The position numbers were made by a program, and so were the translations under genes. The notes below the pieces were generated by a model, which did no database searches, had not been told where the DNA came from, and saw nothing but the letters and a program-made list of their open reading frames with translations. From contig JAAWNY010000001.1 of NCBI GenBank assembly GCA_022799175.1, forward strand, positions 4,999 to 68,998: a stretch of DNA of 64,000 nucleotides, written 5' to 3'. Origin of the DNA: Lachnospiraceae bacterium (GTDB taxonomy: Bacteria; Bacillota; Clostridia; Lachnospirales; Lachnospiraceae). Within the stretch, counting starts at the first letter, position 1, and each line of letters opens with the position of its first letter. Below are positions 1 to 51,653 of the stretch, in pieces.

Positions 1-1293
1 CATGACGATCAGTCCGCCGGAGCCCATCATAGAGCCGATGGAAATCAGATTGTCATAGTCGATGGGAATATCAAAGTGCTCATAGGGAATACATCCGCCA
101 GAAGGACCGCCTGTCTGCGCCGCCTTGAACTTCTTGCCGTTGGGAATACCGCCACCAATCTCCTCGATTACCTCACGCAGAGTCGTACCCATGGGAATCT
201 CTACCAGGCCGGTATTATGGATTTTGCCACCGAGAGCAAAAACTTTGGTACCTTTAGATTTCTCGGTGCCCATGGAGGCAAACCACTCAGGTCCATTGAG
301 GATGATCTGTGGGATATTGGCATAGGTTTCTACATTATTCAAAATAGTGGGCTTGTCAAACAGACCTTTCTGGGCCGGGAACGGAGGTCTTGGTTTTGGC
401 TCGCCACGATTACCTTCGATGGAGTGCATCAGTGCAGTCTCTTCGCCACAGACGAAGGCACCAGCGCCCAAACGCAGATCAATATCAAAATCAAAACCAG
501 TACCGAAAATATCTTTGCCTAAAAGCTCCATCTCCCTTGCCTGGTTGATGGCTATCTTTAAACGCTCCACGGCGATGGGGTACTCAGCGCGGACATATAT
601 GTAGCCTTGATTTGCTCCGATGGCATAACCAGCGATGGCCATAGCCTCCAAAACGGCATGTGGATCACCCTCGAGTACGGAACGGTCCATAAATGCACCA
701 GGATCCCCTTCGTCAGCATTACAACAGACGTATTTCTGATCGGCATCATTTTGTTTGGCCAGTTTCCACTTGAGTCCGGTGGGGAAACCGCCGCCGCCTC
801 TGCCGCGCAGACCGGAATCCATCAGGCATTGGATGACATCGTCAGGAGTCATCTCGGTCAATACTTTACCAAGAGCAGCATAGCCGCCAGTACCGATATA
901 CTCTTCGATGACTTCCGGGTTGATAACACCACAGTTGCGCAGAGCAACACGGTGTTGCTTTTTGTAGAAGTCGGTGTCTACGAGAGACTTAACGCCAGCC
1001 TGGGTAACGGTCTCCTGATACAGAAGACGGGTTACTACACGGCCCTTCAACAAATGTTCAGATACAATCTCCGGAATATCTTCTACCTTAACCATGGAGT
1101 AGAAGCTGGCATCCGGATAAATAATCATAATTGGTCCTAAGGCACAGAGGCCATGACAACCGGTCTGGACGACGGAAACCTCGTCCTGGAGGCCGGCTTT
1201 CTCAATTTCTGCCTTCAGTGCTTCCATTATCTGCTGGCTGCCGGAGGAAGTACATCCTGTTCCGCCGCAGACCAATACATGTGAACGATACAT
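1..1293 (-). CDS. hydB: NADH-dependent (bifurcating) [FeFe]-hydrogenase beta subunit, NuoF/HydB/HndC-like; 3' end runs off the window
   Basis: Manual translation of the minus strand from ATG at 1293 (RBS aggag) gives MYRSHVLVCGGTGCTSS...GLRGRGGGGFPTGLKW...NADEGDPGAFMDR...GAFVCGEETAL...GGPSGGC, the NuoF FMN/NADH motifs. It is absent from the ORF track because it has no stop in the window. Confidence 0.93.
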   Translation of the reverse strand, partial: MYRSHVLVCGGTGCTSSGSQQIMEALKAEIEKAGLQDEVSVVQTGCHGLCALGPIMIIYPDASFYSMVKVEDIPEIVSEHLLKGRVVTRLLYQETVTQAGVKSLVDTDFYKKQHRVALRNCGVINPEVIEEYIGTGGYAALGKVLTEMTPDDVIQCLMDSGLRGRGGGGFPTGLKWKLAKQNDADQKYVCCNADEGDPGAFMDRSVLEGDPHAVLEAMAIAGYAIGANQGYIYVRAEYPIAVERLKIAINQAREMELLGKDIFGTGFDFDIDLRLGAGAFVCGEETALMHSIEGNRGEPKPRPPFPAQKGLFDKPTILNNVETYANIPQIILNGPEWFASMGTEKSKGTKVFALGGKIHNTGLVEIPMGTTLREVIEEIGGGIPNGKKFKAAQTGGPSGGCIPYEHFDIPIDYDNLISIGSMMGSGGLIVM

Positions 1294-14986: not shown

Positions 14987-15265
14987 AAAAGGGGAACCTC
15001 CTTGCTATGATATTTATTGGGATTATAGCGGATATCGGCGGAGAATGCAATGGGGGAGCGAAACGAAAATGCGCAAACTCGCTTTGCACAGATCATGTAC
15101 ATTTCTGTTTCAATGTAAAATTCGGAAACGTAAGATATTCTTAGTCTGGAATTTTATTATGTGAAAACTTGTTGAAATAGGAAGGCAGATTATGGTATCA
15201 TGAATTTGATTTTCGGTTTTATTTACTGGTAACAGAATGACAGATGAGCAGACAGGGAGAAGAGA

Positions 15266-32619: not shown

Positions 32620-33927
32620 ATGAAGAGGATATTGATTGCATTATGTACAGGAAGTTTATTATTAACTCCGCCAGAAATGACTGGTTCGGAACCGGTAATT
32701 CTGGGGAATTTTCAGGAAGAAGGGGTGGAGACATCTGTCGAAGGTACTGCTGTGAAAGCAGAGAATCCGGCGGCGGGGGTGGAGGAACCGGGGGCCAGAA
32801 CAGAAAGTCCGGTTGCTGGTCCGGAGATTGCGGCTCCCAGTGCGGTTCTCATGGAAGCTTCCACAGGTAAAGTGATTTATGAAAAAGATGCGGATAAGCA
32901 ACGGCGTCCGGCCAGCATTACCAAGATTATGACGCTGATTTTAATTTTTGATGCGATTGATTCGGGCAAGATTAAAATGACAGATGAGGTGGTGACTAGT
33001 GCTTATGCGAAGTCCATGGGAGGATCGCAGGTGTTTTTGGAAGAAGGAGAGATTCAGACAGTAGAAACCATGATCAAGTGCATCGTGATTGCTTCTGGCA
33101 ATGATGCTTCGGTGGCTATGGCAGAATATATAGCAGGAACAGAAGGCGAATTTGTAAAGCAGATGAATGAACGGGCGGCTGGCCTGGGTATGACAGGAAC
33201 ACATTTTGAGGATTGCTGTGGTCTGACAGATTCGGCAACCCATGTGACAACAGCCAGAGACATTGCTATTATGTCACGAGAATTGATCACGAAATATCCA
33301 CAAATACATAATTATTCTACAATCTGGATGGAAAATATCACCCATGTGACAAAACAGGGAACAAAAGAATTTGGATTATCCAACACCAATAAGCTTTTGA
33401 AAATGGCAACGAATTTTCAGGTGACGGGACTGAAGACGGGGTCTACTTCATTGGCAAAATATTGTCTGTCAGCTACGGCAGAGAAAGATGGTGTACGGCT
33501 GATTGCTTCGATCATGGCGGCACCGGACTATAAGGCTCGTTTTGCTGATGCGCAGACGTTGCTCAATTATGGGTATGCCAACTGTAAGCTGTATGAGGAT
33601 CATGAGATGCCGCTTCTTCCCGAGTTGCCAGTACAAAATGGGGTGGCAGAGAGTGTTCCCTTAAAATATCGGAGTGGATTTTCTTATCTGGGAGTTGATG
33701 GTGAAGATTTCCAGACAATAGAAAAAAAACTGATGTTGCCGGAATCTCTAGAGGCGCCGGTAATGCCCGGGGATACCGTAGGGGTGCTACGGTATGAATT
33801 GGGAGGCAAAGCACTTGGTGAGGTGGAGATTTTATCCGACGGCCAGGTGGAAAAAGCCGGTTATCAGGATTATTTAAAAAAAGTGATACGAGCGTGGATG
33901 ATGGCGCATCAACTCAGCATTCCATAA
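32620..33927 (+). CDS. D-alanyl-D-alanine carboxypeptidase (DacF-like, peptidase S11)
   Basis: ASITK (SxxK), SGN (SxN) and KTG motifs; GGSQVFLEEGE; C-terminal PBP5 domain. Confidence 0.9.
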   Translation: MKRILIALCTGSLLLTPPEMTGSEPVILGNFQEEGVETSVEGTAVKAENPAAGVEEPGARTESPVAGPEIAAPSAVLMEASTGKVIYEKDADKQRRPASITKIMTLILIFDAIDSGKIKMTDEVVTSAYAKSMGGSQVFLEEGEIQTVETMIKCIVIASGNDASVAMAEYIAGTEGEFVKQMNERAAGLGMTGTHFEDCCGLTDSATHVTTARDIAIMSRELITKYPQIHNYSTIWMENITHVTKQGTKEFGLSNTNKLLKMATNFQVTGLKTGSTSLAKYCLSATAEKDGVRLIASIMAAPDYKARFADAQTLLNYGYANCKLYEDHEMPLLPELPVQNGVAESVPLKYRSGFSYLGVDGEDFQTIEKKLMLPESLEAPVMPGDTVGVLRYELGGKALGEVEILSDGQVEKAGYQDYLKKVIRAWMMAHQLSIP

Positions 33928-35233
33928 TTATTTTTCGATTGACAATCAGACAAATGATGCTTAAAACGAATACTATGCTTTCCGTTAAGGGAAACGCCAG
34001 CCATACGCCAGTCATTCCGGCCAGAACAGACAATAAAAATGCGACCGGAATAATCAGGGCAAAGCCTCTGGCAATAGAGATGAATTGTGCCGGTAAAGCC
34101 TGGTCTGTGGAGGTGAAAAAGAGAGACAGTACAATATTAATTCCGGCGAAAGGGATAGCAGTAAAATATAGTTTCAGACCAGGAACAGCAATTTGCTGTA
34201 GCAAGGAATTTTTCTCGCTGTTAAAAATATAAACAATAGGGGAGGCAAAAGAAAAAAGAACTATATATATAACAGCAGAAAGGGCCAATACACTGAGCAG
34301 ACCATATTGCAGTAGCTGACAGATATATTTTTTGTCTCCTTTTCCATATGCCTGGCTGGCCAGGGGCTGCATTCCTTGAGCAATTCCTGTATAGATAGCG
34401 ATGATAACCAGTGAGAGATTGGCGATTACTCCGTAAGCGGCTACTCCCATATTGCCAGTCAGTCCCAACAGGATAATGTTAAAAACAATAATCACGAATC
34501 CGGAAGACATCTCCGTAATCAGAGAGGGGAAACCAAGATCAAAGCCGGCCAGAATGGTTTTCATATGAAGTTTTTCGTTCCGAATATGAAAACCATTCTG
34601 TTTTTTTATCCAGTGTGTAGACAGGATGGACATGCCAACGATAGGGGCGGCGCCAGTGGCCAACACAGCACCCAGAATTCCCAGATGTAAGGGAAAGATA
34701 AAAACGTAATCCAAAATAATGTTAGATAAGCTTCCCAGAAGCATAGAAAGCATGGCCAGACGAGGATTGTGATCGTTTCTGACAAAACAGGTTAAAAGAT
34801 CGTTTATCATAAAAGCGGGGGCAAACAACATAAGCACCTGCAGATAGGTGCGTGTCATGTTCATGGTTTCTGTGTCGGCGCCGAGAAGCCGTGTTAGGAT
34901 ATCAGACAGGAACAGTCCTGCCAGAACAAACAATCCGGCAGCAGCCAATGTTATCCAAAGCATGTGGGTAAAAATTTGATCGCATTTATCCTGTGCTTTT
35001 TGTCCGCGAAAGATAGAGTACCAGGTAGCGCCCCCCATTCCCAGCATCAACCCGCAGCCATGGATGAAACTAAAAACAGGAATAGCCAGGTTTAAGGCGG
35101 CCAGACCGGCGGTTCCCAGACCTTTGGAGACAAAAAAGGTGTCTGCCAGGATGTAACAGGAAAGGCCGATCATTCCAGTGATATTTAAAATAGTGTATTT
35201 CAAAAACTCCTTGAGGCAGGATTGCGGATGCAT
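33914..35233 (-). CDS. MATE-family efflux transporter (MepA-like), riboswitch-controlled
   Basis: 12-TM pattern; NIILDYVFIF and GIAQGMQP motifs; likely ATG at 35233. Confidence 0.9.
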   Translation of the reverse strand: MHPQSCLKEFLKYTILNITGMIGLSCYILADTFFVSKGLGTAGLAALNLAIPVFSFIHGCGLMLGMGGATWYSIFRGQKAQDKCDQIFTHMLWITLAAAGLFVLAGLFLSDILTRLLGADTETMNMTRTYLQVLMLFAPAFMINDLLTCFVRNDHNPRLAMLSMLLGSLSNIILDYVFIFPLHLGILGAVLATGAAPIVGMSILSTHWIKKQNGFHIRNEKLHMKTILAGFDLGFPSLITEMSSGFVIIVFNIILLGLTGNMGVAAYGVIANLSLVIIAIYTGIAQGMQPLASQAYGKGDKKYICQLLQYGLLSVLALSAVIYIVLFSFASPIVYIFNSEKNSLLQQIAVPGLKLYFTAIPFAGINIVLSLFFTSTDQALPAQFISIARGFALIIPVAFLLSVLAGMTGVWLAFPLTESIVFVLSIICLIVNRKIIMEC

Positions 35234-35280
35234 AAGGATTCCTCCGAAAAATAGTGGGATGGGTATCATAATAAAAAAGG

Positions 35281-35375
35281 TGAAAACAAAACAATAAGCG
35301 TCAGGCTTTCTATCTTCTAAGACCTAATGATAGAAAGTCTGACGCTTCATTCCTTACCCGGTGGCAAGAAACAGC
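35281..35375 (-). ncRNA. Probable guanidine-IV (mepA/GGAM-1) riboswitch
   Basis: Minus strand: P1 CUUG-CCACCGGG-UAAG, then a 19-bp terminator stem whose loop carries GGU, then a U-rich tail, upstream of a MATE gene. Confidence 0.75.
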
Positions 35376-35394
35376 CGATTAAAATCTGATTTTC

Positions 35395-35423
35395 ATTCTA
35401 TCACAACCGAGAAGTGGTGTCAA
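35395..35423 (-). promoter_or_regulatory. Sigma-A promoter driving the riboswitch and MATE gene
   Basis: TTGACA-17 bp-TAGAAT. Confidence 0.85.
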
Positions 35424-35508
35424 CTAAATTCTGATGGGGATCCTCTTGCGAAAAAGAGACTTATAAGCTAAAATACCCTCAGCAAATGAAAAATGAGAGG
35501 AAGCAGAT

Positions 35509-36300
35509 ATGAAAAGAAAAGCGTTGTTTTTTGATGTGGACGGAACTTTGCTGAGTGAAATCACTCACAAGATTCCGGGGAGTGCCCTGGAGGCTCTGGC
35601 AGCTTCCCGAAGAGCTGGAAATCTGGTATTTATTAATTCTGGACGGACGTATTCGTTTTTGAATGATATTGAAGCAATGGTGGAATGCGACGGACTCTTG
35701 TGTGGTTGCGGTACTTGTGTAGTGGAACAAGGAACGGTGATTTTTCAAAAGCGAATAGAACGAGAGCGAGGGTGGCAAATCCGTAAAGCTATGGTGGGAT
35801 ATGGTTTTGATGGAATCTTAGAAAGTACAGAGCGTCTGGTTGTACGAAAAGAGCGCTCTTGGATAACTGCCATGAACCGGTTGCGGGACAGAATTGCCGG
35901 ACAAAATTTTTTATCCGAAGAGCTTTGGGAGGAGGAAAATCTGGAATTTGATAAATTCTGCGTTTTTGCAGATAAAAACAGCGACAGAGAAGGATTCTTT
36001 CGGTTTTTGTCGCCAGATATTGAAGTAATAGACAGGGGAAACGATTTTTATGAATGTGTTCCGGCAGGCTTTACCAAGGCGACAGCGATTGCCTGGGTGC
36101 TAAAGCATCACGGGATTGAGAAAACGAATGCCTATGTATTTGGGGACAGCAGCAACGATTTAACTATGTTTGAATATGCAGAGAATGCTGTTTTAATGGG
36201 GCGTCATGATAAGGTGTTGGAGCCATATGCCACTTTTGTGACAAAGTCCGTGGAAGAGGATGGAATTGCCTGGGCGATGCAAGAGCTGGGCTTGGTTTGA
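35509..36300 (+). CDS. Cof-type HAD-IIB hydrolase
   Basis: FFDVDGTL, NSGR, K and FGDSSND motifs; promoter TTGCGA-17-TAAAAT at 35446-35474. Confidence 0.92.
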   Translation: MKRKALFFDVDGTLLSEITHKIPGSALEALAASRRAGNLVFINSGRTYSFLNDIEAMVECDGLLCGCGTCVVEQGTVIFQKRIERERGWQIRKAMVGYGFDGILESTERLVVRKERSWITAMNRLRDRIAGQNFLSEELWEEENLEFDKFCVFADKNSDREGFFRFLSPDIEVIDRGNDFYECVPAGFTKATAIAWVLKHHGIEKTNAYVFGDSSNDLTMFEYAENAVLMGRHDKVLEPYATFVTKSVEEDGIAWAMQELGLV

Positions 36301-36373
36301 GAGAAAATCTTGTCATCCATGGGGGAACATGATAGAATGATTTTTATATCGATTGATGTCAGGAGGTTTTGCT

Positions 36374-37756
36374 ATGGAAAATAACAAGCAAGAACAAAAC
36401 CAAAAGGCGGATTTGTTTGAAAGTATTCCTATCCCACAGGCAGTGGCAAAGCTAGCGATTCCTACGATTTTGAGTTCTCTGGTAATGGTGATTTATAATA
36501 TGGCAGATACGTATTTTGTAGGGATGATCAACGATCCGATACAAAATGCGGCGGTTGCCTTAGCCTCTCCGGTGCTTCTGGCTTTTAATGCGGTTAATAA
36601 TCTGTTCGGTGTGGGTACTTCTAGTATGATGAGCCGTGCTTTGGGAAGGAAGGATTATGAAACGGTTCGCCGAAGCTCTGCGTTTGGTTTTTATTGTGCG
36701 CTTTTTAGTGGTATTTTCTTTTCTTTTTTGTGCCTGGTATTTCGTCAGCCGTTGTTGATGCTTTTGGGGGCAGATGGAAATACAATAGTCGCAACCGGGG
36801 AGTATCTCCATTGGACGGTCATATGTGGAGCTGCTCCGGCTATTCTTAATGTGGTTCTAGCCTATATGGTGCGTTCCGAAGGGGCTTCTCTGCATTCCAG
36901 TGTGGGGACCATGAGTGGTTGTATTCTGAATATTATTTTGGATCCGATTTTTATTCTGCCGCAGGGATTGAATATGGGAGCTGCTGGCGCAGGATTGGCG
37001 ACTTTTTTGTCTAATTGTGTGGCTTGTTTGTATTTCTTTGTTCTGTTGTATGCAAAACGAAAGACGACCTTTGTCTGTATCCTGCCACATAAATTCCGTT
37101 TTCAGACGGCGATTGTTCTGGGAATTTGTGGAGTGGGGATACCGGCATCCATTCAGAACCTGCTGAATGTGACAGGAATGACTATTCTCAACAACTTTAC
37201 TTCTTCCTATGGCGCTGACGCGGTGGCAGCTATGGGAATTACACAAAAGATCAATATGGTGCCGATGCAGGTGGCATTGGGCTTTTCTCAGGGAATTATG
37301 CCATTGATCAGTTATAATTATGCCAGTGGGAATATCAGGCGGATGAAGGAGAGTATTTTCTTTGTGGTAAAGCTTATGGTCCCTTCTTTAGTCGTGGTAA
37401 GTTTGTTTTACTATATCGGGGCGGGGGCTCTAATTGGGGCATTTATGAAGAATGAGGCGATTATTGCTTACGGAACCAGATTTCTGAGAGGATTCTGTCT
37501 GGGAATTCCTTTTATTTGTATAGATTTTCTGGCAGTAGGGGTGTTTCAGGCAATCGGGCTGGGGAAAGCGGCGTTGATGTTTGCTCTGCTAAGAAAGATT
37601 GCTTTGGAGATTCCGGCATTGTATGTGTTGAATTTTCTGTTTCCTCTTTATGGATTGGTTTATGCTCAGTTTACAGCGGAGTTTGTGCTGGCAGTAGTAG
37701 CAGTCATTATGTTAGGGTGGATTTTCAATAAGTTACAGAAGGGAGAACGGTTATAG
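36374..37756 (+). CDS. MATE-family efflux transporter (MepA-like)
   Basis: YNMADTYFVG, NIILDPIFI and GFSQGIMP motifs; promoter TTGTCA-17-TAGAAT at 36310-36338. Confidence 0.92.
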   Translation: MENNKQEQNQKADLFESIPIPQAVAKLAIPTILSSLVMVIYNMADTYFVGMINDPIQNAAVALASPVLLAFNAVNNLFGVGTSSMMSRALGRKDYETVRRSSAFGFYCALFSGIFFSFLCLVFRQPLLMLLGADGNTIVATGEYLHWTVICGAAPAILNVVLAYMVRSEGASLHSSVGTMSGCILNIILDPIFILPQGLNMGAAGAGLATFLSNCVACLYFFVLLYAKRKTTFVCILPHKFRFQTAIVLGICGVGIPASIQNLLNVTGMTILNNFTSSYGADAVAAMGITQKINMVPMQVALGFSQGIMPLISYNYASGNIRRMKESIFFVVKLMVPSLVVVSLFYYIGAGALIGAFMKNEAIIAYGTRFLRGFCLGIPFICIDFLAVGVFQAIGLGKAALMFALLRKIALEIPALYVLNFLFPLYGLVYAQFTAEFVLAVVAVIMLGWIFNKLQKGERL

Positions 37757-51485: not shown

Positions 51486-51653
51486 GAGGTGTTATAAAAT
51501 AAGTCGTCAGCCATTTCCCTATCTTGTGTTGGCACAATTCACGTACCCTGTCGGATATTAATGGATAAAGTCCACCAATATCCGACAGGGTATTCGTGAA
51601 CAGCTGGACATGAGATACGTGAAATGGCTGATGGCTTATTTTGCAAGACCTCC
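51486..51653 (+). ncRNA. 168-nt rod-shaped palindromic element (candidate structured RNA or repeat element)
   Basis: About 38-bp outer stem, internal loop, 22-bp inner stem; G-U pairs favour the plus strand. Confidence 0.5.

Follow-up and report, generated by a model that had tools for sequence, protein, structure and literature searches.

Guanidine-IV riboswitches and their closest relatives

The guanidine-IV riboswitches, known both as the mepA motif (Salvail et al. 2020, bioRxiv 10.1101/2020.10.21.349134) and as the GGAM-1 motif (Lenkeit et al. 2020, PMC7736828), are built from a P1 hairpin, a short linker and an intrinsic terminator hairpin, and conservation is highest in the two hairpin loops, which pair with each other to form a kissing-loop helix, P2 (10.1101/2020.10.21.349134; PMC7736828). 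Guanidine binds at a stage when the terminator has formed in part and stabilizes this loop-loop helix, increasing read-through; the bound ligand thus blocks formation of the full terminator, making these RNAs ON switches (10.1101/2020.10.21.349134; PMC7736828). In the published model, the shortness of the linker accounts for the mutual exclusion of loop docking and the full terminator (10.1101/2020.10.21.349134). Reported class sizes range from 1,275 to 2,882 members in six or seven phyla, with selective guanidinium binding and read-through known only for representatives from C. botulinum, L. brevis and L. lactis (10.1101/2020.10.21.349134; PMC7736828). The genes associated with the class encode MepA/MATE, SugE/SMR, PnuC, NimA, B3/B4 and GNAT proteins (PMC9788692).

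The L. lactis representative, the sugE leader designated 95 Lla, binds guanidine with a KD of ~210 uM and behaves as an ON switch: in vitro it antiterminates in response to guanidine, and in vivo it activates a reporter (PMC7736828). The mutants G66C, U67A and G72C of this RNA are dead, mutation of G72 abolishes guanidine binding, and replacement of the G located two nucleotides before AGG with C weakens binding (PMC7736828).

Gd4v is a variant of guanidine-IV with an orphan ligand, which is enriched in the gut and in some cases precedes MATE genes (Lenkeit et al. 2022, PMC9788692). At the position designated D1, it carries a nucleotide other than the G that is always present in guanidine-IV and required there for binding; D3 and D4 are two further positions (PMC9788692). 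In the three Gd4v constructs, AGGUA is followed by a hairpin and this in turn by UUACAAG, UGAAAGG or AAGACAA, and the main gene partners of the variant are a PLP-dependent transaminase, YitT and HDc, along with alanine dehydrogenase (PMC9788692). Another system, Guanidine-II (mini-ykkC, RF01068), also uses ligand-dependent kissing between two hairpins to control genes for small exporters.

A two-hairpin leader precedes a MATE gene

We analyzed a 64,000-nt stretch of Lachnospiraceae DNA, referred to here as the window. On its minus strand, sequence and fold together delimit a guanidine-IV candidate leader unit, promoter included, at 35423-35283, directed toward a gene for a 439-aa MATE-family efflux transporter (33914-35233, minus strand), which is the regulated gene. 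The promoter is of the sigma-70 type, with a -35 element TTGACA (35423-35418), a 17-nt spacer and an extended -10 element TGaTAGAAT (35403-35395), all on the minus strand. In the promoter scan this sequence agrees with 11 of the 12 consensus positions and has the TG ahead of the -10, so that the promoter described earlier as perfect is indeed located here and does have an extended -10, but is more accurately called near-perfect, its -10 hexamer being TAGAAT. The same TTGACA-17-TAnAnT arrangement occurs in the orthologous leaders L002, L003 and L004. From the promoter position, transcription is predicted to start at ~35388 on the minus strand.

The transcript would begin with the 5' half of a split aptamer, the P1 hairpin (35372-35349, minus strand), which has 10 bp and a top of the form UGCC-ACCG-GGUA (35366-35355). 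Within its ACCG loop (35362-35359), the ACC at 35362-35360 constitutes the 5' strand of the kissing or pseudoknot helix P2 and pairs with GGU at 35324-35322. A single unpaired linker nucleotide (35348) separates P1 from the intrinsic terminator hairpin (35347-35296, minus strand), whose arms, AAGCGUCAGaCUUUCUAUC ... GAUAGAAAGcCUGACGCUU, form 18 of 19 pairs over the outer and inner main segments, with one A.C mismatch. This hairpin serves as the expression platform and also supplies the 3' half of the aptamer. Its 14-nt apical loop, A-UUAGGUCUUAGAA (35328-35315), contains no inserted hairpin and includes the conserved stretch UUAGGUCUUAGAA (35327-35315), within which the GGU supplies the 3' strand of P2. 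The hairpin is followed by a U-tail, UUGUUUUGUUUU (35294-35283, minus strand), in which 10 of 12 nucleotides are U and which is also present in related elements.

The 105-nt leader is predicted to fold into these two hairpins only, at -37 kcal/mol, and is more stable than 200 of 200 dinucleotide-preserving shuffles (z = -4.97). A generic terminator scan did not report the terminator hairpin because its loop exceeds the limit of 8 used in that scan. The P1 hairpin, the 18-of-19-bp terminator stem, the U-tail before the MATE gene and the complementarity that would allow the GGU to kiss the P1 ACC had all been noted in the preliminary description, and each was recovered here from the sequence.

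We also considered whether the hairpin could be the terminator of an upstream gene. This is ruled out by the position of the nearest upstream neighbor, a HAD-IIB hydrolase gene (35509-36300, plus strand), which is divergent and lies on the other strand.

The MATE gene and its neighborhood

The MATE gene starts with an ATG at 35233, 50 nt past the U-tail, preceded by the ribosome binding site GGAGGA (35245-35240); another in-frame ATG at 35269 has no ribosome binding site, and the context of the start is the same in L002. The protein scores above the cut-off for TIGR00797 (matE), with weaker matches to PRK09575, FepA and MepA, and matches Pfam MatE at 1.7e-39. Genes for a D-Ala-D-Ala carboxypeptidase and a HAD phosphatase are its neighbors. 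We saw no leader peptide and no gene for an RNA-binding protein near the leader.

The window contains a second MATE gene (36353-37756, plus strand), located downstream of the divergent HAD hydrolase gene. Its product is nearer to S. aureus MepA by NCBIfam (7e-58), and no guanidine-IV element was found before it, as judged from the lack of a match to the covariance model R1 described below.

Both loops correspond to those of published guanidine-IV RNAs

The sequence, structural and gene-context features that characterize guanidine-IV RNAs are found in this leader. The P1 top of the class, C-(G/A)CCG-G/R, appears in the window as UGCC-ACCG-GGUA, and the terminator loop UAGG(C/U)C-N-UAG-NA, including the G residues that are essential for binding, appears as UUAGGUCUUAGAA. 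The terminator and its U-tract are situated just upstream of an open reading frame and a short linker away from P1, the two loops form a pseudoknot (ACC/GGU) that covaries, and the downstream MATE gene is of a type associated with the class.

The comparison can be extended to individual letters. In the part of the GGAM-1 alignment available to us, the consensus is C-GCCG-R for P1 and UUAGGCC-N-UAG-NA for the terminator loop, but a sizeable subtype in the same alignment has CACCGG and UAGGUC.U.UAGAA, the string UAGGUC.U.UAG occurring at least 27 times (PMC9788692). The terminator loop UUAGGUC.U.UAGAA is carried by published members in that same portion, one example being NZ_BAHS01000006.1, which reads GCCACCGGGU ... 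GUUAGGUC.U.UAGAA.G (PMC9788692). The window reads GCCACCGGGU ... AUUAGGUCUUAGAAG, so both of its loops are letter-for-letter those of published guanidine-IV members. The leaders of the window, L003, L004, L006 and L007 were not found in the searchable part of the published supplements, which does not imply that they are absent from them.

The window loops, GCCACCGGGU and UUAGGUCUUAGAAG, are also almost identical to those of the guanidine-binding L. lactis sugE riboswitch, CUCCACCGGGAG and GUAGGUCUGAGAAG. 95 Lla reads CUCCACCGGGAG ... CAGUAGGUCUGAGAAG, has the P1 loop CCACCGGG and belongs to the same ACC/GGU subtype. The two RNAs have in common a split aptamer made of two hairpins, the P1 loop CCACCGGG, the terminator loop UAGGUCU(U/G)AGAAG, the ACC/GGU pseudoknot, an intrinsic terminator as the platform, a very short linker and a downstream gene for an efflux pump. 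The nucleotides equivalent to G66, U67 and G72 are all present in the window, as G35323, U35322 and G35317. Two letters differ: 95 Lla has G where the window has U, both at two nucleotides before AGG and immediately before AGAAG, and in the portion of the published alignment available to us the window letter is the majority letter in both cases. The downstream genes differ as well, sugE in L. lactis and MATE in the window, the latter being the eponymous mepA association of the class.

Based on these correspondences, together with the comparative data given below, we consider the MATE leader (minus strand, ~35388 to 35283) to be, with high probability, a guanidine-IV (mepA/GGAM-1) riboswitch of the ACC/GGU kissing-pair subtype. 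As such it is an ordinary member of an already described and abundant class. The identity proposed in the preliminary description, and its view of the class as a transcriptional ON switch in which a kissing loop competes with the full terminator, therefore agree with both the published members and our comparative data.

A related system that could give rise to a similar leader is Gd4v, and it is conceivable that the window element is Gd4v itself or another offshoot of guanidine-IV. It would then have the same fold and ON mechanism but would sense something else than free guanidine, perhaps a nitrogen-rich compound specific to the gut and exported by the MATE protein. Gd4v resembles the window element in its overall fold, in its P1 loop, CCACCGGG, and in having a terminator platform, as well as in its enrichment in the (mammalian) gut and its association with MATE genes (PMC9788692), and the orthologous leader L004 has a hairpin inserted at the site of the D2 hairpin that defines Gd4v. 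We nevertheless find this reading very unlikely for the window. Its loop reads AGGUC-U-UAG-AAG, with AGGUC rather than AGGUA and with no inserted hairpin, which is the guanidine-IV state throughout. At D1, which corresponds to G72, the Gd4v constructs have C or A and the window has retained the G (G35317, in UUAGAAG); the D1, D3 and D4 columns were deduced here from the construct sequences and the text of the Gd4v paper. The loop is the same as in RNAs classified as guanidine-IV and differs little from that of a guanidine-binding L. lactis RNA, and no transaminase, YitT, HD-domain or alanine dehydrogenase gene of the kind that accompanies Gd4v is found downstream. Guanidine-II differs as well, as it employs two ACGR tetraloops and controls translation, and its expression platform has another sequence and mechanism; a search of the genome to which the window belongs gave no Guanidine-II match.

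The element is conserved upstream of orthologous MATE genes

A protein-based search with the MATE protein retrieved 7 orthologous loci with 52-84% identity, hosted by Lachnospiraceae, Eubacterium, Lentihominibacter and Christensenellales-like or other Clostridia MAGs. An element was present upstream of the MATE orthologue in all 7 of the retrieved loci. It stands directly ahead of the MATE gene in L003, L006, L007 and L008, while in L005 (56-2817, plus strand) it heads a three-gene operon encoding a Pyridox_ox_2 (NimA-like) protein, an SfLAP-like membrane protein and the MATE protein. In the closest orthologue, L002 (84% identity), an insertion of ~330 nt separates the element from the ribosome binding site. 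In L004 (150-295, plus strand), where the MATE protein is 72% identical, a hairpin of ~52 nt interrupts the terminator loop after AGGUC and before (G)AGAAG.

A broader set of related elements was collected by pattern search. A loose IUPAC pattern gave 1 match as compared to 7 in the reversed control, so a pattern match alone was not taken as evidence and a stricter pattern was used together with a covariance model. Scanning 401 genomes of the order with the strict pattern yielded 28 matches in 24 genomes; two of these, L012 and L034, have neither the P1 nor the terminator structure and were dropped as chance matches, leaving 26 elements. The genes that follow these 26 elements encode MatE, SMR, PnuC-like NMN_transporter and Pyridox_ox_2 (NimA-like) proteins, as well as one radical-SAM and one metallo-beta-lactamase-fold protein. 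MATE, SugE, PnuC and NimA are gene classes published for guanidine-IV, and the association of the class with MATE genes, which had been put forward earlier as known, thus agrees with the orthologues and the gene context as well as with the published members.

Loops are invariant and stems covary among relatives

The alignment A2 contains 26 sequences and leaves out the window, L003 and L004. Over P1, P2 and the inner terminator stem, 96.4% of its cells are paired, compared to 80.6% in shuffled controls and 34-41% in slid registers, and 10 of the 17 pairs show changes on both sides, a level of pairing and change that neither kind of control approaches. Covariation is found in P1 at columns 9/24 and 10/23 and in the inner terminator stem, where 7 of 8 pairs have changed on both sides, while all cells of the P2 helix (100%) are paired. 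The kissing pair was counted in a total of 28 elements, that of the window and 27 from other genomes, between the position that precedes CC in the P1 loop, which was left free in the search pattern, and the Y of AGGYC. It is A-U in 18, G-C in 8, G-U in 2 and A-C in none, so that this pairing covaries and never breaks in the relatives. Across these relatives the loop nucleotides are invariant and the stems have diverged with covariation.

These observations bear on another explanation, in which the leader responds to no ligand and serves as a constitutive attenuator or one controlled by a protein or by translation, its loop likeness to guanidine-IV being coincidental or vestigial. Strong leader hairpins are common, and no Rfam family matches the element (see below), both of which are compatible with such an attenuator. 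Set against this, the loop letters have stayed invariant while the stems diverged and covaried, the loop-loop pair itself covaries, the element has been kept before 7 of 7 MATE orthologues, and there is neither a leader peptide nor an RNA-binding-protein gene nearby. We therefore regard a ligand-independent leader as extremely improbable, even more so than a Gd4v-like variant, and retain the guanidine-IV assignment.

Covariance models and the scope of annotation

The covariance model R1 was built from A2, that is, from 26 elements of other genomes. Applied to the window, it recovers the leader (minus strand, 35284-35376) at a score of 66.8 bits (E 2.3e-15), every modelled pair being standard; its next-best match in the 64 kb scores 13.8 bits (E 0.32). 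In the whole genome (2.97 Mb, 91% complete), this is the only site identified. The L004 leader, with its extra hairpin, scores 43.7 bits. Across the same family, R1 matches at E<=1e-4 in 35 of 151 sampled genera (~23%). As the pattern by which the training elements were collected was itself based on the window element, the R1 score shows that the element belongs to a conserved, covarying group; the proposed link between this group and guanidine-IV is drawn from direct comparison of letters and from gene context rather than from the covariance model of the original authors.

A search with the Rfam model of the class had been suggested in the preliminary description as a check on the assignment. 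At the gathering threshold, no Rfam family matched anywhere in the window, and at E<=10 the interval 35150-35550 gave only chance hairpin matches to miRNA and snoRNA models, an outcome that at face value would count against the assignment. At E<=1, no guanidine-IV match was obtained for the canonical GCC/GGC relatives L006 and L007 either, while the same scan of the relatives found a T-box at 2.7e-20. The Rfam 15 copy used here appears to have no guanidine-IV model, and since the canonical relatives also score nothing, the miss in the window is uninformative; the covariance-model support that does exist comes from R1. Genome annotation that draws on Rfam will therefore systematically overlook guanidine-IV, an abundant class.

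Rfam does include working models of Guanidine-I and Guanidine-II (RF01068); these had no match in the whole genome, and the window element is for this reason the sole guanidine switch detected in it. Our analysis adds a correct annotation to the genome of an uncultured mouse-gut Lachnospiraceae, which has one detectable putative guanidine-responsive switch, controlling a MATE pump.

A proposed mechanism of MATE regulation

By analogy with the described members of the class, transcription would start from the strong promoter at 35423-35395, and when no ligand is present the 18-bp hairpin with its U-tail would stop it ~50 nt short of the MATE start codon. When guanidinium is bound, the ACC of the P1 loop (within GCCACCGGG) would dock with the GGU of the terminator loop (within UUAGGUCUUAGAA) at a point when the terminator stem has closed in part. 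With a linker of just 1 nt, this docked complex should be incompatible with the full terminator stem; docking would therefore let the polymerase read through and the MATE pump be made, giving a genetic ON switch. Guanidine binding and ON switching enter this scheme from published experiments on near-identical RNAs (10.1101/2020.10.21.349134; PMC7736828).

We infer that guanidine is the ligand of the window copy and also the substrate removed by its MATE protein. Export of guanidine by MATE proteins has been called "reasonable to speculate" (PMC7736828), and in the literature that we searched we found no transport assay for MATE proteins associated with guanidine-IV. The analysis marks a MATE clade in which every retrieved orthologue has a guanidine-IV element, and this clade is a good candidate for an assay of guanidinium export by such proteins. 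In contrast, the relevance to gut metformin handling that had been raised earlier is not supported, because the one guanidine-IV aptamer tested with it rejected 1,1-dimethylbiguanide at 10 mM (10.1101/2020.10.21.349134). Beyond this the practical value of the finding is modest, and it opens no new question.

Variation among related elements

Several features of the related loci were observed in addition to those used in the comparison. The L004 leader, which has kept the guanidine-IV-type letters and carries a hairpin at the D2 site of Gd4v, resembles a hybrid of the two motifs. One could imagine that the ACC/GGU elements associated with MATE and PnuC genes in gut Lachnospiraceae are tuned to a guanidine derivative, with L004 as a living intermediate between guanidine-IV and Gd4v. 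We give this idea little credence, but if it were true, the MATE clade would provide a handle on the Gd4v ligand.

The insertion in L002 (1130-1470, plus strand) has long palindromic arms, GGAGCGGGAAGCGGCGGGAAAGG ... CCTTTCCGGCCGCTTCCCGCTCC, and includes a 26-nt match to window positions 15059-15084. Membership of this insertion in the palindromic repeat family located at 51486-51653 of the window was considered and rejected, as blastn-short gave no match. In L003, a T-box leader (846-1136, minus strand; Rfam 95.6 bits) lies upstream of, and divergent from, the unit formed by the riboswitch and the MATE gene.

The PnuC-associated elements L014, L015, L017, L027, L030, L031 and L032 (~1480-1580 of each locus) contain a further small hairpin within the linker, such as GAAUGC-AAA-GCAUUC, the 3' arm of which also serves as the outer 5' arm of the terminator. 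This hairpin is a classical antiterminator alternative, and the MATE leader of the window has no hairpin of this type. In all PnuC-associated copies of the sample the kissing pair is A-U, with the exception of L025, where it is G-U.
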